Part shown: one piece after another, positions 18,997-34,819 of the stretch
Layout: every line of letters starts with the position of its first letter
Position numbering within the stretch: position 1 is the first letter of the stretch
Assembly (NCBI GenBank): GCA_016783135.1
Contig: JADHXC010000004.1
Coordinates: forward strand, 2,798-66,797
DNA length: 64,000 nt
Direction: 5' to 3'
Origin: Dehalococcoidales bacterium
GTDB taxonomy: Bacteria; Chloroflexota; Dehalococcoidia; Dehalococcoidales; Fen-1064
Made by a program: the position numbers and the translations under genes
The notes under the pieces: model-generated
Told to the model about the DNA's origin: nothing
Seen by the model: only the letters and a program-made list of their open reading frames with translations
Database searches by the model: none

Positions 18997-20127
18997 CTAT
19001 TCTACCGAAGAGCCAGCGGTCGGGCCGCCCTCCAGTCCTGTACTTTCTCGCCTGATAATGTGTACCGCCGTTGCCTTGAAAGTGGCGTAGACGCTCTTTC
19101 CCTTTTCCAGGGCCATCTCCTCGGCCGACCTCCTGGTTACCAGGGCTGCCAGCGTGAAGCCGCAGTCCACCTCAATGCGGGCAGTCGGTCCCGTGGCGAC
19201 CACGCGTGTGATTCGCCCGGTGAACGAGTTGCGGGCGCTGCTGGAGAGCCGCGATAGTGCCAGTGTGACCTCCTCGGCCCGGATACACGCGGAGACCTCC
19301 TCCCCGACGGGAAGGTCTGACAGCGCCTCCACCGGATTTCCTCCGACGTCTACGGTGACGACCCTGTCCTCGTTGGAAGCTATCACGCCGTTGAGGATAT
19401 TCTCCACGCCCACGAAATCGGCTATCTTCCGGGAGCGCGGTGCATTGAATACCTCTCGCCAGTCACCGGTCTGGAGGATTTCGCCATCGAGTAGCATACC
19501 CGCCCTGTCCGCCAGCCGCTGGCCCTGGGACAGGTCGTGGGTGGCCATTACTATTGTGGTATCGTGACGCTCGATGATACTGACAATCAGGTTTTCGATT
19601 CTCGCCGTCGAGACGGGGTCGAGATTTGCCGTCGGTTCGTCGAGCAGGAGTACCTCCGGTTCGGTAGCGATTGCCCTGGCAATAGCCACCATCTGCACTT
19701 CCCCACCGGATAGTGTCCGGGCGTTCCGTTTTCTGTCGGTGGTAAGCCCTACCATCTCCAGGACACGGTCAACCCGGATGCGGATGTCGCTCCGGGACAT
19801 TCCTCTCCATCTCAGGCCATAGGTAATATTGTCATAGACGGTGGTGTTGAATACCACCGGTTTCTGGAGCACGAAAGCCATCCGCCGCCGCGCTTCCAGC
19901 CGGAGTCTGGCCGATTCGGTAACGTCGGTACCGTCGAAGTAGAGCTGCCCGCGATCCGGCGTGTCAATAAGGTCGAGCAGCCGCAGCAGTGTGGTCTTTC
20001 CGGAGCCGGTCGGACCGATGAGGGCAAAGACCTCGCCCCGCTTTATCCTGATATTGATGTTCTTCAGGATATCCCGGTCACCACGCCGCTGGCACAGGTC
20101 AACGGTTTCTATTAAAGACATCATCAC
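18997..20127 (-). CDS. ABC transporter ATP-binding protein with C-terminal TOBE/Mop domain (tungstate/molybdate type)
   Basis: 376 aa. Walker A is GPTGSGKTT, the signature is LSGGE and Walker B is LLLDEP. The C-terminal part (~120 aa) looks like a TOBE fold. Confidence 0.88.
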   Translation of the reverse strand: MMMSLIETVDLCQRRGDRDILKNINIRIKRGEVFALIGPTGSGKTTLLRLLDLIDTPDRGQLYFDGTDVTESARLRLEARRRMAFVLQKPVVFNTTVYDNITYGLRWRGMSRSDIRIRVDRVLEMVGLTTDRKRNARTLSGGEVQMVAIARAIATEPEVLLLDEPTANLDPVSTARIENLIVSIIERHDTTIVMATHDLSQGQRLADRAGMLLDGEILQTGDWREVFNAPRSRKIADFVGVENILNGVIASNEDRVVTVDVGGNPVEALSDLPVGEEVSACIRAEEVTLALSRLSSSARNSFTGRITRVVATGPTARIEVDCGFTLAALVTRRSAEEMALEKGKSVYATFKATAVHIIRRESTGLEGGPTAGSSVE

Positions 20128-20891: not shown

Positions 20892-21842
20892 CTATTCAGG
20901 CTCGGCGCCGGCACAGGGGGTGAACAACTGCATACCGTACTCTTTGGCACCATAGTTACCGATGAGCTCCTGTACGTCTGGTGAGGTGAGGAAGGTTATC
21001 AGGTTGTTAGCCCTTTCGAAGTTGGCCTCACCCACGATGTCCGAATTTACGGCAATTGCAGAATAGACGTTGAGCAGTATCCCACCCTTGTCCACGATAG
21101 GCACCAGCTCCAGTTTGCCCTTGTAGGATAGATAGGTACCCATATCGGTGAGAGTGTAGGCTTGCTTCTCGCTGGCCATCATCAGGGTGGCTCCCATGCC
21201 GGTACCTGCCTCGATGTACCAGGACCCGGCACCACGGACTGCCTCGTAATCATAGCCGGCGGCTGCCCAGATTGCCTTTTCCCTGGAGTGCGTCCCGGAG
21301 TCATCGCCCCGGGAGACGAAGCTGGCGTTGCCGGTGTCCATCAGCTTCTCAAAGGTTTTTTCAGGGGTGAGTCCCTTGATTCCGGCGGGGTCGGCCTCCG
21401 GGCCGACGATAAGGAAGTAGTTATAGGCAAAGGGGACTCGCTCCACGCCATATCCTTCGGCGATGAATTCCAGCTCGTGGGTTTTGGAGTGGACGGTGAT
21501 GATGTGGACATCACCCCGGCGACCGTACTCCAGGGCTTTGCCGGTCCCGGCGTACATGACGTCCAGCTCGACGCCGTATTTGTCCTCGAACATAGGCTCG
21601 AGGTATCCCCAGAGTCCGGTATCGTAGAGACTGGTGGTCGTGGCCACCCTCACGGCAGCAGAGACCAAGCACCCGGTTAGTGTTGTCAAGATGCCCACGA
21701 CTAGCAGCAGGGCCGCTAGGGCGCTGGCAATCCTCAATCCGGGACCCCTTCCCAACAGGGATACAGGGAACCGGCAGATACGGACGTGGGATGACATTGG
21801 GCTATGGTGGGCAGTGAGGCACGCACGTGCGTGTATGATCAA
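20892..21842 (-). CDS. Tungstate/molybdate ABC transporter substrate-binding lipoprotein (TupA-like)
   Basis: VATTTSLYDTGL and RGDDSGTH anion-binding motifs are present, with a lipobox LTGC. The start is uncertain: TTG 21842 lies 6 nt after GGAGA, and the alternatives are ATG 21797 and TTG 21860. Confidence 0.8.
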   Translation of the reverse strand: MIIHARACLTAHHSPMSSHVRICRFPVSLLGRGPGLRIASALAALLLVVGILTTLTGCLVSAAVRVATTTSLYDTGLWGYLEPMFEDKYGVELDVMYAGTGKALEYGRRGDVHIITVHSKTHELEFIAEGYGVERVPFAYNYFLIVGPEADPAGIKGLTPEKTFEKLMDTGNASFVSRGDDSGTHSREKAIWAAAGYDYEAVRGAGSWYIEAGTGMGATLMMASEKQAYTLTDMGTYLSYKGKLELVPIVDKGGILLNVYSAIAVNSDIVGEANFERANNLITFLTSPDVQELIGNYGAKEYGMQLFTPCAGAEPE

Positions 21843-21845
21843 AAC

Positions 21846-21950
21846 CACTCTCCTTTCCAAGTCCGGGAGGCGTGAGGGTTTTCCCTCACACCCTATCGTT
21901 TGCCTCTCGTAGGTGGGACACCCTTAGAGAAGACAACTCGGAGACCGCTA
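21846..21950 (-). ncRNA. Candidate Moco/Wco (molybdenum-cofactor) riboswitch
   Basis: The minus strand reads GGUCUCCGAG...CCUACGAGAGGC...GUGAGGG-AAAA-CCCUCAC-GCCUCCCGGACUUGGAAAGGAGAG. The CUCCGAG / CCCGG / GGAAAGGAG blocks match my recollection of the Moco motif, and UCUCC pairs with the GGAGA Shine-Dalgarno. It is not confirmed by a covariance model. Confidence 0.5.
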
Positions 21951-22039
21951 TTCAGCTAAACGGGTTCTATCTTATGCTGTAATGCTATCATAAATATATC
22001 CTACTGGCTGGTGGCACGTCAACCATACGCTCCCGGCCT

Positions 22040-23650: not shown

Positions 23651-25108
23651 CTAACCGCCGAACATCTTGGCGGCGAACTCGGCGGCCTTCATGGCGAAGC
23701 CGGGGAGGATGCCGATGAAGAGGACACCGAGGCAGGTAATGGCCAGTGCCACACGCAACGCCCCTGAGGAGGGTACTTTCTCAGTGGAGGCAGGTTCACC
23801 GAGCCACATTACCTTGACCACTCTCAGGTAGTAGAAGGCCGATATCACGCTGTTGATGACGGCGATAATGACCAGCCAGAGCAGGTCGCTCTGCACCGCT
23901 CCACTGAAGATGTAGAACTTGGCCATGAACCCGGCTGCCGGGGGCATGCCAATCAGTGATATCAGGCACAGCGTCAGACCGAGGGCAAGGACCGGCGCCC
24001 GCTTGCTCATCCCGGAAAAGTCCGCAATCAGGTCGCTGTTAATCTTGTTGGTGATGGCAATGATGGCGATGAAGGCCCCCAGGTTAGCCATCGAGTAGCT
24101 TAACAGGAAGAACATGACCGTGCTCTGGTTGAGTGTGCTCGTGGCTGCTCCGACACCCATAGCGGCCAGACCGACCAGCAGATAGCCGGCCTGGGCGATG
24201 CTGGAGTAACCGAACATACGCTTGATATTAATCTGGGGTAAGGCGGAAATATTACCCACCGTCATACCGATAGCTGCCAGCGCGGCGAAGACCAGACCCC
24301 AGTTCATGCTCAGCCATTCCGGGGTACCGAATGCGGAGAAGAAGACGCGGAGTATGATGGCAAAACCGGCCGCCTTACTGGCCACGGACAGGTAACCGGT
24401 TATCGGGGTTGGCGCCCCTTCGTAGACGTCGGGCACCCACATCTGGAAGGGTACCGCGGCAATCTTGAAACCGAAGCCGGCAATCAGCAGGACCGCACCC
24501 AGCATAAGCGCCGGGTTATCGCCGACTCCCGTGGCACCGAGGTTCTGGACAGCCTGTGATATTTCGGCAAGCTGTGTGGTACCGGTCGAGCCAAAGACCA
24601 GCGCCATTCCATAGAGCAGTACTGCCGAGGAGGTTGCACCCAGCAGCAGGTACTTGATTGACGACTCCGTTGATTTGGGGTCTTTGAGGAACCCGGCCAG
24701 AACGTAGAGTGAGATACTGGCCAGCTCGAGGGCGATGTAGATGGTGATAAGCTCGGAACTGGCCGCCATGAGCATCATGCCCAGTGCGGAAAGGACTATC
24801 AGTGCGTAGTATTCACCCTGGAAGCGACTGAACTTGGGCGCGTAGTCGACAGAGGCCAGGATAACCAGAGCGGCAATCCCCAGGAAGAGAAGTTTGAAGA
24901 AGAGGGCAAAGTTGTCCACGGACAGCATGCCGTTGAATGCGGCCTCGGAGGTGCCCCAGAGAGCGATGGCAAAAACGGCGGACACCACCAGACCGATAAT
25001 ACTGAGAACCACCAGCACCCCTTTTCTCTCGATAAAGAGGTCAAGCAGTATCAGCACTACTGCGGTTGCTGCCAGGCTCAGTTCTGGTGCCAACAGCTCA
25101 AGATTCAA
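23651..25108 (-). CDS. nuoN: NADH-quinone oxidoreductase subunit N
   Basis: 485 aa polytopic antiporter-like subunit, last gene of the nuo operon. Confidence 0.9.
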   Translation of the reverse strand: MNLELLAPELSLAATAVVLILLDLFIERKGVLVVLSIIGLVVSAVFAIALWGTSEAAFNGMLSVDNFALFFKLLFLGIAALVILASVDYAPKFSRFQGEYYALIVLSALGMMLMAASSELITIYIALELASISLYVLAGFLKDPKSTESSIKYLLLGATSSAVLLYGMALVFGSTGTTQLAEISQAVQNLGATGVGDNPALMLGAVLLIAGFGFKIAAVPFQMWVPDVYEGAPTPITGYLSVASKAAGFAIILRVFFSAFGTPEWLSMNWGLVFAALAAIGMTVGNISALPQINIKRMFGYSSIAQAGYLLVGLAAMGVGAATSTLNQSTVMFFLLSYSMANLGAFIAIIAITNKINSDLIADFSGMSKRAPVLALGLTLCLISLIGMPPAAGFMAKFYIFSGAVQSDLLWLVIIAVINSVISAFYYLRVVKVMWLGEPASTEKVPSSGALRVALAITCLGVLFIGILPGFAMKAAEFAAKMFGG

Positions 25109-25132
25109 GACCTACTCCTTAGAAACACCGCT

Positions 25133-26641
25133 CTAACCGCCTATCAAGGCCACTATCGGCGAGATACCGAGTCTGATTATGTCTGTCATTATCGCCGGAT
25201 AGATACCGATTATCATTATCAGGATGACAAAGGCGAACATGTAGACCTTCTCCAGGTTATCGGCATCTTTGACACCGTTATATTGCTCCAGTACCGGACC
25301 GTAGAACGTTCGCTGTATCATCCACAGGATATAGCCGGCGGCGAGTACCACACCCAGCACTGCCAGGATAGTGAAGACCTCTGCGCCCCCAACGACCTTA
25401 CTGGAGAAGCTGCCGATGAAGGTGATGAATTCGGCGGCAAAGCCGCTGGTCAGCGGCAGACCCAGCGAGCCAAGACCGGCGATAGAAAACACGATGGCAA
25501 TGACCGACATCTGCCTGGCCAGTCCGCCTAGCTTCCTGAGGTCCCGCTCCTTGACATTGTGTATCATCAGGCCGGCCATGGCGAAGAGCAACCCGGTGAG
25601 CAGGCCGTGGCTGAGCATTTGCAGACCCGCTCCGGTCAGGCTTATCTCATTGAGGGCAAAGATGCCGAGCAGCACGTAGCCCATGTGGCTCACGCTGCTA
25701 TAGGCAATCATCCGCTTGAGGTCGGTCTGCCTCAGGGTCAGCGCCGCGCCGTATAGTATGCTGATTACGGCCAGCGTCATTAGCATCGGTGCGAAGCTGC
25801 GGGCTACGTCCGGGAAAATGCTCACGCAGACGCGTATCATCCCGTAGCCGCCCATCTTGATTAGCGCCCCGGCAAGCATCACGCTACCGGCAGTCGGTGC
25901 GTCGGTATGGGCGTCCGGGAGCCAGGTATGCAGCGGGAACACCGGCAGCTTGACGGCAAAGGCGATGATGAGGAGCCAGAAGATTGACGCCGCCGGCATG
26001 ATGGACTGCACCATGCCAAGCCCGCCCTCCGAAATATCCACCATGCTCAGGCTGCCGGTGGTGAAATACAGGCTCAGGATACCGGCCAGCATGAAGGCAC
26101 TGCCGAAAAGTGTGTAGAGAACGTACTTAATAGACGAGTACTCTTTTCGGCCCGTACCCCAGATGGATATCAGGAAGTACATCGGGATGACTTCTATCTC
26201 CCAGAAGACGAAGAAGAGCAGCAGGTCGAGCGAGCAGAATACGCCCAGGATGCTCGCCTCCAGGAGAAGCAACCAGGCGAAGTACTCGCGGACTCTCACG
26301 TGGACCTTCCACGAGATAAGTATCACCATGAAGCCGAGGAAGGCCGTCAGCAGCACCAGCGGTGCGCTCAGGCCATCCACGCCCAGGTGGTAGTTGGCGA
26401 CCAGGTGGTGGTTGGCATTGAAGGCGGCATCAATCCAGCCGACCTTGTCCACGAACTGGAACCCCTCGAGCGTACGGTCGAAAAGGCTGAACATGGCGAC
26501 CGCAAAGCCAAGCGGGACAAGAGTGAAGATGGCTGAAAGCCACCGTATCAGCCTGTCGGACAATCCCGGGATGAAGGCAACCAGTACTGCCCCCACCATG
26601 GGCACAAAGACTATCGCAGTGAGAATGCCACTAAACTCCAA
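25133..26641 (-). CDS. nuoM: NADH-quinone oxidoreductase subunit M
   Basis: 502 aa antiporter-like subunit (HTWLPDAH motif). Confidence 0.9.
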   Translation of the reverse strand: MEFSGILTAIVFVPMVGAVLVAFIPGLSDRLIRWLSAIFTLVPLGFAVAMFSLFDRTLEGFQFVDKVGWIDAAFNANHHLVANYHLGVDGLSAPLVLLTAFLGFMVILISWKVHVRVREYFAWLLLLEASILGVFCSLDLLLFFVFWEIEVIPMYFLISIWGTGRKEYSSIKYVLYTLFGSAFMLAGILSLYFTTGSLSMVDISEGGLGMVQSIMPAASIFWLLIIAFAVKLPVFPLHTWLPDAHTDAPTAGSVMLAGALIKMGGYGMIRVCVSIFPDVARSFAPMLMTLAVISILYGAALTLRQTDLKRMIAYSSVSHMGYVLLGIFALNEISLTGAGLQMLSHGLLTGLLFAMAGLMIHNVKERDLRKLGGLARQMSVIAIVFSIAGLGSLGLPLTSGFAAEFITFIGSFSSKVVGGAEVFTILAVLGVVLAAGYILWMIQRTFYGPVLEQYNGVKDADNLEKVYMFAFVILIMIIGIYPAIMTDIIRLGISPIVALIGG

Positions 26642-26680
26642 GCCTGCTGACTCCTATCAAATCCTTTAGCCTATAAATAC

Positions 26681-28645
26681 TCATCCGAAGATATACAGGA
26701 TAATGGCAATCGCGGATGCCCCCAGGGCAATGGACAGCGCGTACAGTTGAAACTGTCCCGTCTGCACCTTGCGGACCACGTCTCCACTGGACATTATAGC
26801 ATTGGCTGCTCCATTCACCACCCCGTCGACACCTCTGGTATCCAGCTTCTGAAGTCCGGCGAAGAACCCCCCGAGCAGTGCCTTTCGCACGATTAAGTCT
26901 TCGTACAGTTCGTCCATCCAGTACTTCCGCGAGAACATCACGTATAGCGCCTGGAACCTGGCACCAATGCGTTCCGCAGAAATCTTTTTGGTATTGTACA
27001 TCAGGTAGGCAAGCAGAATACCGCCCAGCGCCAGCAGTAGCGATATAATCGGCCACGGCGAGTGGGTGAATATGCCGAAGAACCCGTCAATGAAACTCTT
27101 CGTATGTCCGTGCCCCATGAGCTCTCCGAAGTGTCCGAAGGCATTCCAGAAACCGGCCACGACCGCCAGGACGGCCAGGAAGACCAGGGGAGCCACCATG
27201 ACCTTCGGCGATTCGTGCGGGTGACCGTGTGCCTCCGGGTCGCCGCCGCGGTACTTCCCGTGGAAGGTCATGTAGATAACGCGGAACATGTAGAAGGCGG
27301 TCATGAACACGGTTATCATTGCCAGAATAAAGAGGACAACATTCCCGTCCAGCGCTGTTACCAGGATTTCGTCCTTGCTCCAGAAACCAGCCAGAGGCCA
27401 GACTCCTGCCAGGCTCAGAGAGCCGAGGAGGAAGGTGATATACGTCCAGGGCATTATCTTGCGCAGGCCGCCCATCAGCCGCATATCGAACGTTCCGGTG
27501 GCATGGTTGACGCTGCCCGCCCCAAGGAACAGGAGCGACTTGAAGAAGGCGTGGGTGGCTAAGTGGAAGATACCGAAGGTGGTGGCGGCCTTGGCCGCCT
27601 CTACTGTAACGTTTCCTTCATGGAAAAGTATGATACCAGCCGCCCCCAGCCCGAGCATCATGTAGCCAAGCTGGCTGATGGTGGAATAGGCAAGCACACG
27701 CTTTATATCGTTCATAACCAGGCCCATTGAGGCCGCAAAGATGGCCGTAAACCCTCCGATGGTCGCCACCACGGTTACTGCCTCGAGGGAGTGGGCGAAT
27801 ATCGGGAAGGTGCGGGCTACCAGGAACACGCCCGCCGAGACCATCGTCGCGGAATGGATAAGGGCGCTGACCGGTGTCGGACCTTCCATGGCATCCGGCA
27901 GCCAGATGTGGAACGGGAACTGGGCTGATTTACCCATCGCTCCGGCGAAGATACCGATAGCCACCCAGGTGAGGGTGGCGCCGGCGAGTGCACCCGCTGC
28001 CGCCAGACCGCTCAGTTCCGCAGTGTCAAACGTCCCAGTGTTGGCGAAGAGGAGCAGTATCGCTACCAGGAAACCGAAATCGCCAAACCGGGTGACGATG
28101 AAGGCTTTCTTGGCAGCGTTGGCTGCGGACGGTTTGTGGAACCAGAAACCGATAAGCAGATACGAGCACAGACCGACCATCTCCCAGAAGACGAACATCA
28201 TGAGGAGGTTGTTGGCAATGACCAGGCCCAGCATGGAGGCGGTGAAAAGGGACATCCAGGCGTAGTACCGGGTGTAGCCCGCTTCATCATGCTGCATGTA
28301 GCCCAACGAGTATATCTGTACCATCAGGCTGACGACGGTGACCACGACCAGCATCACGGCGGTCAGCGAGTCCATTATGATGCCCAGATTGATTGTGAAG
28401 TCACCGATAGTCAGCCAGGGTGCGTTGTTTATGGTGACATCCGGCAGTATGATTTCGTGGTTCGGTGCTCCCATCACTTCGGTCAGTGCCCAGATGGAAA
28501 GTACAGCCGAAGCACCAATGGCCGTAATAGCTATCAAGCCCGATACGCTTGATTTGGAGTTAACGAACGGCCTGATAAAGAGACTTATCAGTCCAAACGA
28601 AATCACGGGCAGCAGGAATATGAACCAGTATGCTTGGTCCGGCAT
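26681..28645 (-). CDS. nuoL: NADH-quinone oxidoreductase subunit L
   Basis: 654 aa, with HIWLPDAMEGPTPVSALIH and a long C-terminal lateral-helix region. Confidence 0.9.
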   Translation of the reverse strand: MPDQAYWFIFLLPVISFGLISLFIRPFVNSKSSVSGLIAITAIGASAVLSIWALTEVMGAPNHEIILPDVTINNAPWLTIGDFTINLGIIMDSLTAVMLVVVTVVSLMVQIYSLGYMQHDEAGYTRYYAWMSLFTASMLGLVIANNLLMMFVFWEMVGLCSYLLIGFWFHKPSAANAAKKAFIVTRFGDFGFLVAILLLFANTGTFDTAELSGLAAAGALAGATLTWVAIGIFAGAMGKSAQFPFHIWLPDAMEGPTPVSALIHSATMVSAGVFLVARTFPIFAHSLEAVTVVATIGGFTAIFAASMGLVMNDIKRVLAYSTISQLGYMMLGLGAAGIILFHEGNVTVEAAKAATTFGIFHLATHAFFKSLLFLGAGSVNHATGTFDMRLMGGLRKIMPWTYITFLLGSLSLAGVWPLAGFWSKDEILVTALDGNVVLFILAMITVFMTAFYMFRVIYMTFHGKYRGGDPEAHGHPHESPKVMVAPLVFLAVLAVVAGFWNAFGHFGELMGHGHTKSFIDGFFGIFTHSPWPIISLLLALGGILLAYLMYNTKKISAERIGARFQALYVMFSRKYWMDELYEDLIVRKALLGGFFAGLQKLDTRGVDGVVNGAANAIMSSGDVVRKVQTGQFQLYALSIALGASAIAIILYIFG

Positions 28646-28839
28646 TAGAGTTTCCTTAACACCTCGCTAATCACGTGCTCCTTGTCCTGAGGTACCAGGA
28701 TGCGGTAGGTGGTCGCCTCCTGGCCTATCGGCAGACCAGACTCAGGCATAAGCCGGGTGGGTATACCTTCACCCTCGAAGAACTCTTTCCACATCTCCGC
28801 CATCATTAGATTAGGCGCTTTCTTAATCTCAACCCACAT
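28645..28839 (-). CDS. DUF2007-like small protein embedded between nuoK and nuoL
   Basis: 64 aa. The pattern MAEMWKEFFEGEGIPTRL....YRILVPQDKEHVISEVL resembles the DUF2007 'putative signal-transducing' fold. Its stop overlaps the nuoL start as TAATG, and its start lies 6 nt after the nuoK stop. Confidence 0.6.
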   Translation of the reverse strand: MWVEIKKAPNLMMAEMWKEFFEGEGIPTRLMPESGLPIGQEATTYRILVPQDKEHVISEVLRKL

Positions 28840-28845
28840 TGTCTG

Positions 28846-29157
28846 TTACCGTTTCATCAGGTTTATTTCCGTGGAATCGACGGTCCCACGCTGGCGATAG
28901 AGCGCGATGATTATCGCCAGGCCCACGGCGGCTTCGGCTGCCGCCACTGCCATGATGAATATCACGAAGACCTGTCCGGTCAGCTCTACCGGTGCGATGT
29001 ACCGGGAGAAGGCCACCATGGCGATATTCACCGCATTCAGCATTATCTCAATGCACAGCAGGATAGCTATCATGTTACGCTTGGCAAGTGCCCCGTAGAG
29101 CCCTATGGCGAACAGGACTGCCGAAAGCGCCAGGTAATGTTCCAGACCTACAGACAT
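28846..29157 (-). CDS. nuoK: NADH-quinone oxidoreductase subunit K
   Basis: 103 aa, three TM helices, conserved Glu in ..[15 protein letters not shown].. Confidence 0.9.
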
Positions 29158-29162
29158 CTTGC

Positions 29163-29651
29163 TTACTTCTCCCTGACCAGTACGATAGCCCCGAGAATCG
29201 CCGCCAGCAGCAGCACGGCGGCAATCTCCACAGACAATATATAGCCGTTTTCACCGAAGAGCTTGCCCGCCAGTTCCGTAGTGGTCGGTTCCAGTGGTGC
29301 CACTGCGGATATCTGCCACGGGGTATTGAACACGGCAAAGCACACCGTTCCCAGGAAAACCAGGGCGGCAGCCACCGCGGGAATGCGCAATTTATTAGCC
29401 GGATTACCATGCTGGATATCGCGGGTAAGCATGATGCCCAGGATTAGCAATATCGAAATGGCACCGACATAGACCAGGATCTGCACTGCCGCCAGGAAGT
29501 CGGCGCTCAGTGTAATGTAGAGTCCGGCCACAGTTATAAAGCACAGCACCAGGGAAAGCGCCGCCCGGAAGACGTCACGCAGCATGACTACCGCCAGCGC
29601 AGCGGCCACGCCGACAACGGCCAACAGCCAGAATGCAACATCCAGTGGCAT
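29163..29651 (-). CDS. nuoJ: NADH-quinone oxidoreductase subunit J
   Basis: 162 aa membrane subunit at the canonical operon position. Confidence 0.88.
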
Positions 29652-29657
29652 CAGTGC

Positions 29658-30152
29658 CTACTCCTTCCTTTCAATCAACAGGGTCTGCTCCGGCAGCGTA
29701 TCATCGAGTTCGGGGTGGAAATAGCTGCTGGGTTTCCTGCCATCCATCATAAGCTGGTCCCTTTTGAGCATCAGGGCACCCCGCCGGTATTTTGCCAGTT
29801 CAAAAGCGTAGCCCATGAACAGGGCGTTGTACGGGCAGGCCTCCACACAGAGGCCGCAGGAGATACAGTACCCCGTGTCCACTTCAAACTTTTCAACCGT
29901 GTAGTTATTTTCCTCACCCGGGGACGTCTCGATATGGATGACCCCCTGGGGGCAGGTCTTGGCGCAGGTAGCGCACCCGGTGCACTTCTCCTTGTCCCAG
30001 ATAAGCTCATTACCGCGGGTCCGGCGCGAAACCACCAGCCTCTGTTCCGGGTACTGTGTGGTTACCCGGCGCCGTACCAGATTCCTGAGGGTTACCGTGA
30101 GGCCTTTGGCGATGCCGGCCCCGTATCGTTCAAACTTCAACTCTACCCCCAC
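29658..30152 (-). CDS. nuoI: NADH-quinone oxidoreductase subunit I (2x[4Fe-4S])
   Basis: CTGCATCAKTCP and CISCGLCVEACP are present. Confidence 0.92.
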   Translation of the reverse strand: MGVELKFERYGAGIAKGLTVTLRNLVRRRVTTQYPEQRLVVSRRTRGNELIWDKEKCTGCATCAKTCPQGVIHIETSPGEENNYTVEKFEVDTGYCISCGLCVEACPYNALFMGYAFELAKYRRGALMLKRDQLMMDGRKPSSYFHPELDDTLPEQTLLIERKE

Positions 30153-31257
30153 CCAGCTTGGAGAGTCTGGACCACAGCAATATGAGCACGCCCAACATGG
30201 CGAAATTAATCGGGATAATGTACAGCGGCAGGTCTCCAGGCCACGCCAGGATTTCCAGTGCCGTGACCAGCAGGTTAATCAGCGCCAGCGGGAAGAGGAA
30301 CTTCCACGCCAGTGCCATAAGCTGGTCTATCCTGACACGCGGTAACGTAGACCGTGTCCATACCATAGTGAAGAATACCAGGAGTATCTTGACGATGAAC
30401 CATAGCCACGGCGGCAGGACCGGACCCTGCCAGCCGCCGAGGAAGAGCGTGGTGATTATGGCGGACATGACCACTGCTTCGCCATACTCGCCCAGGTAAA
30501 ACATGGCGAACTTCATACCGGAATACTCGGTGTGGAAACCGGCGGTAAGCTCCGAATCTGCCTCCATGAGGTCAAACGGGCTGCGGTTTATCTCCGCACA
30601 GCCGCCGACGAAGAGGAGGAAGAACCCGAGGGGCTGCAGGATGATGAAGGGTACTCTCTCCTGTGCCAGTACGATGTCATTCAATGAAAGCGAACCGGCC
30701 AGCAGCACGACTCCAGCGATAGAGAGGACGACGGGCATCTCGTAGCTGACGACGGCGGCCACGTTTCGCATCGCACCTAGCAGGGAGTACTTGTTGCTCG
30801 AACTCCAGCCGGCCATAAACACCCCGATGGTGGATATCGAGCTGATGGCGATAACGAAGAGGACGCCGATGTCGAGGTCAGCCAGCATGGCACCGTTCTG
30901 GAAAGGCACTACGGCAAATATCATTATCACCGGGGCGAAGACCACCGCCGGCGCCAGCCAGTAGACCAGCTTATCGGCATTGGACGGCGTGATATTTTCC
31001 TTGAGCAGTACCTTGATGGCATCCGCTATTGCCTGGAGCACACCGAAGGGGCCGGTCCGGTTGGGGCCGACCCGCGCCTGGAAGAATGCTATGCCCCGCC
31101 GCTCTACGTAGATGACGACGATAACCATCACCAGCACAAAGACAATACAGATAACGGTGAAAACCAGCCAGTGCCACCACTCGTTCCCCGGCCAGTCCGG
31201 GGGCACGGCATTCAGGTGGCGCATAGCGCCGGAGAAAACAGTATCAAGCGCGGTCAC
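30130..31257 (-). CDS. nuoH: NADH-quinone oxidoreductase subunit H
   Basis: 375 aa. RVGPNRTGPFGVLQ..AD and NRSPFDL.EADSEL motifs are present. Confidence 0.92.
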   Translation of the reverse strand: MTALDTVFSGAMRHLNAVPPDWPGNEWWHWLVFTVICIVFVLVMVIVVIYVERRGIAFFQARVGPNRTGPFGVLQAIADAIKVLLKENITPSNADKLVYWLAPAVVFAPVIMIFAVVPFQNGAMLADLDIGVLFVIAISSISTIGVFMAGWSSSNKYSLLGAMRNVAAVVSYEMPVVLSIAGVVLLAGSLSLNDIVLAQERVPFIILQPLGFFLLFVGGCAEINRSPFDLMEADSELTAGFHTEYSGMKFAMFYLGEYGEAVVMSAIITTLFLGGWQGPVLPPWLWFIVKILLVFFTMVWTRSTLPRVRIDQLMALAWKFLFPLALINLLVTALEILAWPGDLPLYIIPINFAMLGVLILLWSRLSKLGGGRVEV

Positions 31258-32360
31258 TATCTGTCAACCTCACCCATAGTAATAGCAAAGCTACCAAAGA
31301 TGAGAATCAGGTCCTGTATTTTCCACCCGATTATCATATCACGCAGGGCTGTCAGGTTCATCAGGCTGGGTGCCCTGATATGGCACCGGTACGGGGCGAT
31401 GGAACCATCGGACACCAGGTGGAAACCCACTTCTCCCGTGGGTGCTTCGACGTGGGCATAGGCCTCACCAACCGGCGGGCGGACCAGGTGCGGTACGTCG
31501 CTCCGTATCTCTCCGGACGGTATCTGTTCCATTGCCTGCTCGATGATACGCAGGCTCTGCCTCATCTCTTCTACCCTGACGCGATAGCGGTCGTAGCAAT
31601 CGCCCTGGATGCCGGTGGGTATATCGAATTCAAAGCGGTCGTAGATGGAGTAAGGGTCTGCCTTACGTATGTCCCATTTCACTCCGCTGCCGCGAAGCGT
31701 TGGTCCGCTGGCACCGATGTTAATCGCCAGGTCCCGCGGCAGTATACCCACACCTTTGGCGCGGACCAGCAGTATCTCATTCTCTTTGAGGAGCCGGTCA
31801 TACTCGTCTATACGTTCGCGCATGCGGGGGATGAATTTACGCAGGGCCGGCAGAAACTCCTCGGGAATGTCATGGCTAACACCGCCGATACGCATGTAAT
31901 TATAGAGCAGGCGCTGGCCGCAGACCATATCAAAGAGGTCGCAGATGTTCTCCCGTTCGCGGTACATGTAGAGGAACGGTGTGAAATATGCTCCGCAGTC
32001 GTTAAAGAATGAACCGACGGATACCAAGTGGGCGGCGATGCGCTGTAGCTCGGACATGATGACCCGGAGGTATTCGGCCCGCTCCGGAATGGGAATACCG
32101 GCCAGCTTCTCCACGGTGAGGACATAGGCCAGGTTGTTGGTCATCGAAGCCACGTAGTCGAGGCGGTCCGTCAGTGGGATAACCCCGCCATAGGTGCGCT
32201 CCTCGGCCAGCTTTTCAATGCCCCGGTGCAAATAGCCAAAGACCGGGTCCAGGTCAAGGACGACCTCTCCGTCGAGGGTGGCCCTCATCCGGAATACGCC
32301 GTGCGTACTCGGATGCACCGGTCCGATATTGAGAACAAACGGCTCTGTTCTCAGTTCCAT
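31257..32360 (-). CDS. nuoD: NADH-quinone oxidoreductase subunit D
   Basis: 367 aa. NIGPVHPSTHGVFR and GYLHRG.EKL motifs are present. Confidence 0.93.
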   Translation of the reverse strand: MELRTEPFVLNIGPVHPSTHGVFRMRATLDGEVVLDLDPVFGYLHRGIEKLAEERTYGGVIPLTDRLDYVASMTNNLAYVLTVEKLAGIPIPERAEYLRVIMSELQRIAAHLVSVGSFFNDCGAYFTPFLYMYRERENICDLFDMVCGQRLLYNYMRIGGVSHDIPEEFLPALRKFIPRMRERIDEYDRLLKENEILLVRAKGVGILPRDLAINIGASGPTLRGSGVKWDIRKADPYSIYDRFEFDIPTGIQGDCYDRYRVRVEEMRQSLRIIEQAMEQIPSGEIRSDVPHLVRPPVGEAYAHVEAPTGEVGFHLVSDGSIAPYRCHIRAPSLMNLTALRDMIIGWKIQDLILIFGSFAITMGEVDR

Positions 32361-32801
32361 CTACATGAAGTCCTTTCGCTGCGGGTGTCCTTGAAAGTCC
32401 GACCAGAGGACGATACGCTTCATGTTCGGGTGGCCTTTAAACGTAATCCCCATAAGGTCGTAGATTTCCCGTTCCTGGTGGTCGGCACTCCGCCAGAGGC
32501 CGACCAGCGACGGCAGTGTGAGGTTGTCACGACCCTGGCAACGGGTCTTGATGACCAGGCTGTGATTGTGCTCAATGGAGACGAACAGGTAGACAACCTC
32601 GAAGTACTGGTAGTAGTCAACCGCCGTGATTGTGGTCAGGTAGTCGAAGTCGAGCCCCGGGGTATTCTTGAGAAAGGCACCCACATCCAGCAAGGAGTCG
32701 CTGTCAACGAGAATAGCAGTGCCGGTAGCATCAATGACTGCATCCGGCAGTCGTTCGCTAATTTGTCCGGCAATCTCCCGGGTGGATAGAGAAGTAGTCA
32801 T
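32361..32801 (-). CDS. nuoC: NADH-quinone oxidoreductase subunit C
   Basis: 146 aa. ..W.SADHQEREIYDLMGI.F.GHP.. is present. Confidence 0.9.
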   Translation of the reverse strand: MTTSLSTREIAGQISERLPDAVIDATGTAILVDSDSLLDVGAFLKNTPGLDFDYLTTITAVDYYQYFEVVYLFVSIEHNHSLVIKTRCQGRDNLTLPSLVGLWRSADHQEREIYDLMGITFKGHPNMKRIVLWSDFQGHPQRKDFM

Positions 32802-32827
32802 CTGCCTTTCTTATCGGATAGTGCTTT

Positions 32828-33019
32828 TTATATTTTCTCCAACTCGGCTTCAGGAAAAGCCATGTTGTAGCCGGTGCTGTCCGCCTTCATAATGACATAA
32901 TCGGCGGGGTCTTCCTTTACTTCAACAATTTCGCCTTCCCAATTGGCGATTTTATATCCTCCGGGCCAACCCGGCCTATCCAGAACCCTGGCCCTGTCAC
33001 CCACACTGAACTTGGCCAT
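32828..33019 (-). CDS. Small SH3-like (PsaE/NdhS-reminiscent) protein embedded between nuoB and nuoC
   Basis: 63 aa: MAKFSVGDRARVLDRPGWPGGYKIANWEGEIVEVKEDPADYVIMKADSTGYNMAFPEAELEKI. The ATG is preceded by GAGGAGGGGAGG. It starts 38 nt after the nuoB stop and ends 26 nt before the nuoC start. The ORF-track start at 33145 overlaps nuoB and was rejected. Confidence 0.6.
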   Translation of the reverse strand: MAKFSVGDRARVLDRPGWPGGYKIANWEGEIVEVKEDPADYVIMKADSTGYNMAFPEAELEKI

Positions 33020-33057
33020 CGCCTCCCCTCCTCGTTCTAAGGTTAATATGCGGCAGG

Positions 33058-33657
33058 CTATTCCTTGATGATATTGGTTCTCTTGGCTATCTTCTCCTGC
33101 AGCATCTGTATACCGTGCAGCAGGGCCTCGGGACGCGGCGGGCAACCGGGCACGTAAACATCAACCGGAATTATACGATTATACCCTGGTACTACGTTGT
33201 AGGAAGAGCGGAAGATACCGCCGCTGATACCGCAGGCACCCATGGCGATAACCCATTTCGGCTCCGCCATCTGATTATATATCCGTCTTACGTTGGGTGC
33301 CATCTTCCAGGTCAGCGTGCCCGCGGTAATCAATACGTCTGCCTGACGCGGCGAGGCACGCAGGATTTCCATACCGAAACGGGACATGTCGAAACGGGGG
33401 CCCATCACGGAAATAAACTCGAAGGCGCAGCAGGCCGGGAAGCAGATGACCGGCCACAGTGAGGAACGTCGCCCCCAGTTGATTAACCAGTCGGCGGTGG
33501 TCAGCAGTATATTCTGGCTCAGCTCTTCGTCCAGCCAGGCATCAGGGTCCGAGAGCGGTTCCATGGCACCGGCCTTCAGTTCCTCGATGACCTTGCTCTC
33601 GGACTGGTCGAGTTCCGAATCCGAATAGACGTAGTCCCTGGCTCTGCTTACTTCCAT
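33058..33657 (-). CDS. nuoB: NADH-quinone oxidoreductase subunit B
   Basis: SLWP..F..ACCAFE, GACGISGG and PGCPP N2-cluster motifs are present. Starting at MEVSR (33657) gives a short overlap with nuoA. An acidic ~45-aa N-terminal extension remains. Confidence 0.9.
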   Translation of the reverse strand: MEVSRARDYVYSDSELDQSESKVIEELKAGAMEPLSDPDAWLDEELSQNILLTTADWLINWGRRSSLWPVICFPACCAFEFISVMGPRFDMSRFGMEILRASPRQADVLITAGTLTWKMAPNVRRIYNQMAEPKWVIAMGACGISGGIFRSSYNVVPGYNRIIPVDVYVPGCPPRPEALLHGIQMLQEKIAKRTNIIKE

Positions 33658-34019
33658 TCTAGAACTCTCTTCCTCCAGGCGTAAAGGTAACCAACAACAA
33701 TGAGGGCGATGAAGATAAGTACTATAATGAAACCGGAAGTCCCGAGGTCCCTCACATTGACCGCCCACGGATAGATAAACGCGACCAGTACATCCAGGGC
33801 CAGGAAAATCAGGGCGTAGAAGTAGTAGCGAAAGTTGAACTGTACCCACGTCTTCCCGATGGTTTCCATGCCGCACTCAAACGTGGCGTTCTTGACAGCG
33901 TTGGGATGGTGGGGAACTAGCTTGAGGTATCTGAATACAACGGGAAGAATAATTAAAAGGAGACTAAAAAGAACGGCAACAATGATGAAGAGTCCGACGA
34001 AACCGTAATCAGAGAGCAA
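33648..34019 (-). CDS. nuoA: NADH-quinone oxidoreductase subunit A
   Basis: 123 aa, three TM helices, FECG motif. The TTG start lies 6 nt after AAGGGGGG. Confidence 0.9.
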   Translation of the reverse strand: MLSDYGFVGLFIIVAVLFSLLLIILPVVFRYLKLVPHHPNAVKNATFECGMETIGKTWVQFNFRYYFYALIFLALDVLVAFIYPWAVNVRDLGTSGFIIVLIFIALIVVGYLYAWRKRVLEWK

Positions 34020-34081: not shown

Positions 34082-34819
34082 GATAGATTCGGTAACAGTT
34101 TCTTTTGACGCAACACGGATGGATTCGGTATAAGGTAGGCCGACCTTTAAGAGGCACTGGTTGAAGACAACAGCGCCTCTTAAATAAGACCTCCCAGGTA
34201 CCTTGTTACCCGGCAACTTTTCGGTCCTGCTACTACCTTTTGGCTTACACCTACTCAGTTGCCACTCTTCCAATTAGTTACCAATAATTCGGGTACCTGG
34301 GAGGGTGTAACTATATGGCATGCCCAGAGGAGTTGTCAAAGCAATTGACAGCCCAGGAGCAGTATACCAGACGATTCCTGACCAGTATGAGGCCATCTGG
34401 CTGCACATTACTCTTACTTGCTTCGCCTATCTTCGTCGGACGTCGGCTTTCTTTCTATGGTGCTAACCTGCCGCGGTTGCCAGACTGTCGGGCCAGTTCG
34501 CCTTGAGCCCTGGTATCGAGCGAAACGCGGCATCGTGAGGTGTCAAATGACTGTTCTCAACCACATCAAGAGAGCGCAACGCCTGTCTTGACTGAGGTGT
34601 ACCCCATCCTTAGGGTAGGATAGGGGCTGTACTAAGAGAGGGATGCCAACCTTAACCCCCATTTCCTGTGTATTCTCTTTATGACGCCTCCTTGTTGCAT
34701 TACCTACAACGTAAGTCTCGCGGGTTCTGAGCCGTCGTCGGCTGGGCAACCATAAGATGAGGTAGGATGGAAAAGATGGACACCGAAGTCAGGTAAAATA
34801 GAAAGACGGAGGTGTCAGA

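Follow-up and report, generated by a model that had tools for sequence, protein, structure and literature searches.

A strongly conserved, predicted SH3-like protein of 63 residues encoded at the nuoB-nuoC junction or in heat-shock loci of uncultured Dehalococcoidales

For the complex I-like enzymes of anaerobes that have 11 subunits and do without NuoEFG, the literature has not settled on an electron donor and regards extra subunits as 'not excluded' (PMC11238625). A complexome study of Dehalococcoides mccartyi did not detect Nuo (PMC6005880). The small SH3-like protein NdhS (CRR31; PF11623) belongs to an enzyme of this general type, is restricted to oxygenic phototrophs and has NdhV as its partner (PMC7021789). 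In the structure of Fd-NDH-1L, it sits in a groove of NdhI, ~25 Å from ferredoxin, and is interpreted as a foothold for NdhV and not as a ferredoxin binder (PMC7021789). Here, we describe ORF63, a 63-residue gene found in a stretch of 64,000 nucleotides (nt) from a Dehalococcoidales bacterium (contig JADHXC010000004.1, positions 2,798 to 66,797), hereafter the window. Wedged between nuoB and nuoC, ORF63 is an obvious candidate for an extra subunit, yet it is probably not a dedicated electron-input adaptor, because it is missing from about four-fifths of the sister operons, shows no detectable relationship to NdhS or PsaE, and occurs equally often in heat-shock operons. From one orthologue to another, the location of ORF63 shifts between the nuoB-nuoC junction and loci of heat-shock or chaperone genes, with one copy per genome. 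An earlier reading made from the sequence alone (the sequence-only reading) had seen in ORF63 an adaptor of the NdhS or PsaE type that would dock ferredoxin and point to a ferredoxin:quinone oxidoreductase. The features of the operon, in window coordinates, are as follows.

32828-33019, minus strand: ORF63, 63 residues, with its ATG at 33019-33017 and its TAA at 32830-32828; the translation matches the residues quoted in the sequence-only reading
33022-33033, minus strand: Shine-Dalgarno of ORF63, GAGGAGGGGAGG, 2 nt ahead of the ATG, read directly off the sequence
33058-33657, minus strand: nuoB, probable ATG at 33657 (open reading frame list; Pfam Oxidored_q6 on the syntenic gene of locus L001; tblastn synteny)
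32361-32801, minus strand: nuoC, 146 residues (open reading frame list; Complex1_30kDa on the syntenic L001 gene; alignment)
33648-34019, minus strand: nuoA (open reading frame list)
31257-32360, minus strand: nuoD (open reading frame list)
23651-34019, minus strand: the operon nuoA-B-ORF63-C-D-H-I-J-K-orf64-L-M-N (open reading frame list; tblastn and Pfam synteny with L001)
34310-34339, minus strand: promoter-like TTGACA-18-TATAGT, ~290 nt upstream of nuoA (consensus scan, 11 of 12 positions; a pattern match only)

The start of nuoB overlaps the end of nuoA by 10 nt, just as in L001. From the nuoB stop codon (TAG, 33060-33058), 38 nt lead to the start of ORF63, whose own stop is separated by 26 nt from the nuoC ATG at 32801. 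The coordinates, the 63-residue translation, the Shine-Dalgarno GAGGAGGGGAGG and both spacers given by the sequence-only reading are all confirmed from the sequence, as is its description of the operon as lacking nuoE, nuoF and nuoG (EFG-less): nuoD adjoins nuoH, with no nuoEFG between them. A scan of the window returned no promoter-like or terminator-like sites between nuoB, ORF63 and nuoC, and TTGACA-18-TATAGT is the sole strong candidate promoter for nuoA, nuoB, ORF63, nuoC and the genes that follow. With its short spacers, its own Shine-Dalgarno and no separating sites, ORF63 is encoded within the nuo operon and is probably co-transcribed with it. In the NuoB of the window (33058-33657, minus strand), the conserved core is preceded by an acidic extension at the N-terminus, ~55-60 residues long (MEVSRARDYVYSDSELDQSESKVIEELKAGAMEPLSDPDAWLDEELSQ...).

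ORF63 is a real gene under strong purifying selection. A search of a large protein database (E<=0.01) returned 216 clusters of homologues, nearly all of exactly 63 residues and 75-100% identical, every one of them unnamed or 'hypothetical' and derived from metagenome-assembled genomes (MAGs) of Dehalococcoidia or Dehalococcoidales. An alignment of 30 sequences has 17 invariant columns and 22 further columns conserved at 90% or more; almost the entire surface of the small protein is conserved, and many of the residues on it are aromatic. In codon alignments of 20 orthologues, the median ratio of nonsynonymous to synonymous change (dN/dS) was 0.08 across the 37 of 190 pairs that were unsaturated, the synonymous sites being saturated in most pairs (median proportion of synonymous differences, pS, 0.82; of nonsynonymous differences, pN, 0.14). 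No protein of the operon is better conserved than ORF63 at the divergent locus L011, where it is 79% identical to the window copy versus 60% for NuoB, 58% for NuoC, 72% for NuoD and 53% for NuoI. The family is uncharacterised and restricted to a subgroup of uncultured Dehalococcoidales; it is undescribed, having no curated model and only 'hypothetical' members, although its fold class is itself very common.

When one genome per GTDB species was scanned, ORF63 turned up at 20 loci, each in a different MAG and hence as one copy per genome, with orthologues 75-90% identical. Fourteen of these loci lie between nuoB and nuoC, and no nuo gene is located within 4 kb of the other six. A second genome scan, anchored on NuoC, collected 81 closely related EFG-less nuo operons, of which only 15 carry ORF63, in nuoB-nuoC gaps of 211-287 nt. 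In the remaining 66, nuoB is followed directly by nuoC after 6-85 nt, NuoB and NuoC keep their lengths, and none of the genomes is among those positive in the ORF63 scan, which recovered 13 of the 15 in-operon copies. Most sister lineages thus run the complex without ORF63. The same unchanged lengths and 6-85 nt gaps led us to reject the idea that ORF63 is a piece split off from NuoB or NuoC. In a neighbour-joining tree of NuoB plus NuoC, the ORF63-positive operons form a main clade of 11 and three scattered taxa, at weak resolution. Large nuoB-nuoC gaps in other phyla held no analogous small reading frames, being instead C-terminal extensions of NuoB or N-terminal extensions of NuoC. Two Isosphaeraceae (Planctomycetota) loci, L076 and L077, illustrate such gaps: their 327-442 nt encode a long extension, rich in Pro, Ala and Lys, in one frame with NuoB or NuoC.

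Metagenomes contributed 80 further orthologous loci, 40 linked to nuoB/nuoC and 40 unlinked. The nuoB-nuoC junction thus holds ORF63 with short spacers in the window and in 55 other loci (15 genomic and 40 metagenomic), so homologues do exist at the same place in other EFG-less nuo operons. The co-occurrence with such operons that the sequence-only reading had proposed as a check did not emerge, as only 15 of 81 carry the gene and 40 of the 80 metagenomic copies lie outside nuo; linkage to nuo is not consistent across relatives. Nuo-linked and free ORF63 proteins are indistinguishable in sequence. In the ORF63 tree, again weakly resolved, the context classes form clusters of their own, nested among paraphyletic and basal nuo-linked sequences. 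One free-copy genome, CAYOHA01, has ORF63 beside groESL (L012) and still possesses a nuo operon (L301); the NuoC-anchored scans comprised the best 80 loci, and the other five free-copy genomes are not among these.

We clustered the neighbours of the 46 unlinked ORF63 loci and confirmed the assignments with Pfam, which gave the following arrangements.

Hsp20 gene, then ORF63: 11 loci, same strand, gaps mostly ~70-120 nt, with a Zn_ribbon_8 gene and dnaJ often next in line
Trigger factor gene (tig), clpP, then ORF63: 6 loci (L018, L210, L220, L236, L243, L256)
Perfect CIRCE (controlling inverted repeat of chaperone expression) element, hrcA, grpE, then ORF63: 1 locus (L263, 1342-3189), with ORF63 starting 12 nt past the grpE stop
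ORF63, then groES-groEL: 1 locus (L012)
GreA-like gene (~299 residues), then ORF63: 8 loci
Other or undetermined context: ~13 loci, including a group with its own extended -10 promoter

The 11 hsp20-ORF63 loci belong to a larger class of ~18 loci, and CIRCE-like inverted repeats with 2-4 mismatches precede five loci of the hsp20 type (L203, L206, L215, L217 and L230). Chaperone and protease genes make up ~1% of a genome by rough reasoning, so four independent neighbourhoods of this kind are unlikely to have arisen by chance. This recurrent adjacency, in independent arrangements, is a property of the ORF63 orthologues and not of the window copy. It suggests that the heat-shock gene set of Dehalococcoidales includes these orthologues as a small, uncharacterised SH3-like member. 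Four free copies (L017, L020, L257 and L267) have an extended -10 promoter, TGnTATAAT (TGATATAAT), ~70 nt upstream and a conserved 5' leader. We considered whether the leaders of these own-promoter copies resemble RNA thermometers and rejected this, as they fold no better than shuffled sequences (z -0.15 to -0.56).

ORF63 is predicted, with fair confidence, to be a five-stranded SH3-like beta-barrel. An AlphaFold2 model built from the family alignment reached a predicted local distance difference test score (pLDDT) of 83.3 and a predicted template modelling score (pTM) of 0.66. Its five antiparallel strands (residues 9-12, 28-34, 41-46, 52-56 and 60-62) form a partly open barrel and its first loop is long and RT-like, as expected of SH3-like small barrels; this loop also contains a short helix. 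All of the top 50 Foldseek matches in the PDB are of the SH3, KOW, Tudor or PWWP type, which upholds the SH3-like fold proposed from the sequence. First places go to the KOW domains of NusG/Spt5 (E 8e-4; template modelling score normalised to the query, TMq, 0.74; 20-23% identity), followed by the SH3-like domain of thiocyanate hydrolase/nitrile hydratase, PetP at rank 7, and PWWP and Tudor-like domains. Ribosomal L21e-type proteins and PWWP complexes with single-stranded DNA (ssDNA) are also among the matches. NdhS appears at ranks 21 and 34 (6khi_S, TMq 0.71 and, normalised to the target, TMt 0.75; 6a7k_B), with 14% identity.

This shared fold did not extend to a detectable sequence relationship with NdhS or PsaE. 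Searches of Pfam (at E<=10), NCBIfam and PDB sequences with ORF63 gave no match, a profile search of PDB sequences with the family found no NdhS, and none of 30 family members matched the NdhS or PsaE models of Pfam even at E<=1. The sub-threshold Pfam matches of these members are confined to SH3-like families such as R67 DHFR, SH3_15, KOW2_Spt5, NHase_beta_C and SH3_3, with KOW and Ribosomal_L21e as further examples. A precomputed PF26460 flag on the homologue P0022 was not reproduced; local Pfam searches gave it only sub-threshold KOW2_Spt5 and DHFR_2. For profile comparison, we used NdhS sequences from Synechocystis and Thermosynechococcus and PsaE sequences, all verified against the PDB. 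With hhalign, the ORF63 family aligned to NdhS with a probability of 0.4% (E 0.15) and to PsaE with 47% over 53 columns, whereas two functionally unrelated SH3-like controls, R67 DHFR and the E. coli NusG KOW domain, reached 71% and 55%. Because these controls score above PsaE, the pattern G-D-R-x-R-V...G-x-I-V-E-V...E-L-E, which the sequence-only reading had associated with PsaE and NdhS, is a generic signature of the fold class, and the proposed kinship does not hold. Its premise that NdhS is the ferredoxin-binding subunit is itself contested by the position of NdhS in Fd-NDH-1L (PMC7021789).

Set against these described proteins, ORF63 resembles NdhS in being a small barrel of ~60 residues tied to an EFG-less complex I-type enzyme, with a TM score of ~0.7. 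It differs from NdhS in its long RPGWPGGY loop, which NdhS lacks, in its absence from most sister nuo operons and in its frequent location in heat-shock loci. PsaE (PF02427), the stromal subunit of photosystem I, shares the SH3-like pattern GD+VR+...G.V..V...ELE; this similarity is no greater than that to R67 DHFR or NusG KOW, and the lineage that hosts ORF63 is non-photosynthetic. The best structural matches, namely NusG/Spt5 KOW and related SH3-like modules (R67 DHFR, the C-terminal domain of nitrile hydratase beta and PetP), also supply the only Pfam matches, all below family thresholds. Compared with these modules, ORF63 stands alone as a protein, has an acidic to neutral net charge and carries 8-9 additional residues inserted in its first loop.

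Sequence comparison shows ORF63 to be homologous to SH3-like domains attached to hydratases. When 1.84 billion representative proteins were searched exhaustively with the profile of the ORF63 family, only 61 matched, and the relatives beyond the 63-residue family scored hmmsearch E values of 8.6e-16 to 1e-4. Some of these are proteins of 65-80 residues; others are the C-terminal ~70 residues of proteins of 460-500 residues (P0131, P0162, P0165 and P0174), the N-terminal part of which is a double-hotdog hydratase of the FAS1_DH/MaoC type. The stand-alone relatives P0129 and P0136 are encoded directly downstream of a FAS1_DH gene of 390-420 residues. Against these hydratase-attached domains, hhalign gave the ORF63 family a probability of 99.9% (E 4.5e-33); identity to the P0131 C-terminus ranges from 46% to 55%, with the window copy at 46%. 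Two giant repeat proteins among the matches, P0124 and P0144, were judged to be repeat or low-complexity matches to other SH3-like repeats and were set aside. The attached domains have the same motif layout (GDRV+VKDRPxWP...GYV...EK) and length as ORF63, but their hairpin ahead of the last strand is longer and variable, and they are always fused to a hydratase or encoded right after one, as ORF63 never is. We found no hydratase in the window or within 3-4 kb of ~100 ORF63 loci, and tblastn with four of the hydratases matched only the ORF63 part. No ORF63 paralogue was found within the window, and models of the ORF63 family and of the small hydratase-attached domain are lacking in both Pfam and NCBIfam. 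The double-hotdog hydratases of ~390-500 residues that carry the domain, fused or as a downstream gene, are themselves an uncharacterised family; their loci (L027/L028, 4728-6210; L029, 4733-6195) have hydantoinase A/B-type and ring-hydroxylating dioxygenase genes among the neighbours.

A second small gene of the operon provides a contrast.

28645-28839, minus strand: orf64, 64 residues, between nuoK (28846-29157) and nuoL (26681-28645)

The orf64 stop and the nuoL start overlap by 1 nt. This gene has 805 homologue clusters and 246 relatives in species-representative genomes; in the best 80 of these 246 loci, it is flanked by both nuoK and nuoL in 75, and the other five end at a contig edge. 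It is retained in genomes whose nuoB-nuoC junction is without ORF63. This is the pattern of a dedicated nuo-operon gene, and ORF63 does not follow it. The orf64 protein is modelled by AlphaFold2 with a beta-alpha-beta-beta-alpha fold (pLDDT 90.2). This structure has no significant match in the PDB, where the DUF2007 structure 2hfv reaches a TMq of 0.68; PF09413 (DUF2007) is flagged in the precomputed annotation of some homologues. None of the papers searched names both DUF2007 and complex I. As a candidate for a lineage-specific component of complex I, the DUF2007-like orf64 is preferable to ORF63.

Elsewhere in the window, a riboswitch precedes an ATP-binding cassette (ABC) transporter operon.

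21834-21955, minus strand: molybdenum cofactor (Moco)/tungsten riboswitch (Rfam RF01055, 68.7 bits), upstream of the ABC-type transporter operon
20892-21860: substrate-binding protein, 322 residues
20124-20663: permease
18997-20127: ATPase

This riboswitch-led transporter is consistent with uptake of tungstate or molybdate.

We favour, tentatively and with somewhat less than even confidence, a role for ORF63 in folding, assembly or stabilisation, with complex I as its client in this genome. ORF63 would be a small soluble SH3-like module that binds other proteins and acts on them after translation, and would not be a dock for a redox partner. The attached domain of the hydratases is a bolt-on enzyme part, which fits ORF63 as a module for protein-protein interaction. 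Binding may involve the invariant RPGWPGGY loop and the KTGYNMAFPE hairpin. In this genome, where ORF63 would be co-transcribed with nuoB, nuoC and nuoD and translated from a strong ribosome-binding site, the embedded copy would act on complex I, in its assembly or maintenance and not in electron input. In support of this role, copies outside nuo (40 of the 80 metagenomic and 6 of the 20 genomic loci) recur in four different proteostasis arrangements, nearly all of the protein surface is conserved, and CAYOHA01 combines a free copy with a nuo operon. The recurrence of the exact nuoB-nuoC junction in 55 further loci, together with the lack of separating sites in the window, points to a genuine connection with complex I in these lineages. 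Several observations weigh against such a role. ORF63 has no sequence or fold match to a known chaperone, co-chaperone or complex I assembly factor, and no CIRCE element accompanies the ORF63 copy in the window. The chaperone link is one of guilt by association, its source being short metagenomic contigs, and repeated sampling of one lineage may account for each context class. The eight free copies that follow a GreA-like gene and the ~13 in other or unknown contexts fall outside the chaperone pattern, and a tight, position-invariant embedding in nuo would be equally expected of a stoichiometric subunit.

Such a subunit is the foremost alternative, which we consider rather unlikely: ORF63 would be a lineage-specific accessory protein, the 12th or 13th, on the peripheral arm of the EFG-less enzyme, with a structural or regulatory role and placed like NdhS, NdhO, PsaE or PetP, in an architecture analogous but not homologous to that of NdhS. 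Its invariant position with a strong Shine-Dalgarno and short spacers in the window and 55 loci, a conservation at least equal to that of the core subunits and a fold shared with NdhS and PetP all speak for it, and the paraphyletic, basal nuo-linked copies indicate, at weak resolution, that nuo may be the ancestral location. Cyanobacterial NDH-1 subunits such as ndhS are also encoded apart from the core genes. Extra subunits are moreover left open for the 11-subunit enzymes (PMC11238625). Against a subunit stand the 66 of 81 close relatives whose operons lack ORF63 at unchanged NuoB and NuoC lengths, in genomes not among the ORF63-positive ones; the half of orthologues in heat-shock or chaperone loci, including a CIRCE-controlled hrcA-grpE operon, which is odd for a respiratory subunit; and the behaviour of orf64, which keeps its place next to both nuoK and nuoL in 75 of 80 loci, the other five being cut by contig ends. 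A more specific version, in which ORF63 is an unrecognised extra subunit of the 11-subunit enzyme that caps NuoB/C/D/I and helps form a docking site for the electron donor, convergently with NdhS and PsaE, strikes us as improbable; the donor could then be ferredoxin, flavodoxin or a hydrogenase module. The ferredoxin-docking adaptor of the sequence-only reading is very unlikely. It would draw on the SH3-like fold, with NdhS among the Foldseek matches at TM ~0.7, on the EFG-less operon around ORF63, and on the open question of the electron donor (PMC11238625). It has to contend with the lack of any Pfam NdhS or PsaE match in 30 members, hhalign values that are negligible for NdhS and below unrelated SH3-like controls for PsaE, and the distance of NdhS itself from ferredoxin, which makes it no direct binder (PMC7021789). 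The proposed ferredoxin:quinone oxidoreductase function is further weakened by the many sister EFG-less operons without ORF63 (66 of 81) and by the orthologues outside nuo (40 of 80 metagenomic and 6 of 20 genomic loci). A conserved basic surface is also absent, which is a weak point, as the NdhS core is near neutral too; with net charges of -4 to +2 for the ORF63 orthologues and -1 for the NdhS core, we dropped the charge argument as uninformative.

Two further explanations set aside a function in complex I. ORF63 could be a KOW- or Tudor-like binder of nucleic acid, RNA polymerase or the ribosome, a small expression factor for which the nuo location is incidental. The best Foldseek matches (NusG/Spt5 KOW, ribosomal L21e-type and PWWP-ssDNA complexes), the sub-threshold KOW2_Spt5, KOW and Ribosomal_L21e matches in Pfam, the aromatic-rich conserved surface, and the free copies behind a GreA-like transcription factor gene (eight) or behind trigger factor and clpP (six) all lean this way. 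We nevertheless regard it as improbable, since the acidic to neutral net charge is unusual for a nucleic-acid binder, the KOW-type matches all remain below family thresholds, and the closest true homologues are attached to metabolic hydratases and not to the expression machinery. Those homologues raise the other explanation, in which a hotdog-fold hydratase, encoded at another place in the genome, has ORF63 as its small partner subunit, and the ORF63 gene hitch-hikes in the nuo operon. For all the near-certain profile-profile homology to proteins fused to or following FAS1_DH/MaoC hydratases, and the 46% identity to the P0131 C-terminus, we consider it very unlikely: neither the window nor the surroundings of ~100 ORF63 loci (3-4 kb) hold a hydratase gene, and hydratases are likewise missing from the recurrent neighbours of the free copies.

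ORF63 represents a new and very strongly conserved small SH3-like family in an uncultured, environmentally abundant lineage. A role in the folding or assembly of protein complexes is hinted at by the way its gene switches between nuo and the hrcA-grpE, hsp20-dnaJ, tig-clpP and groESL loci.

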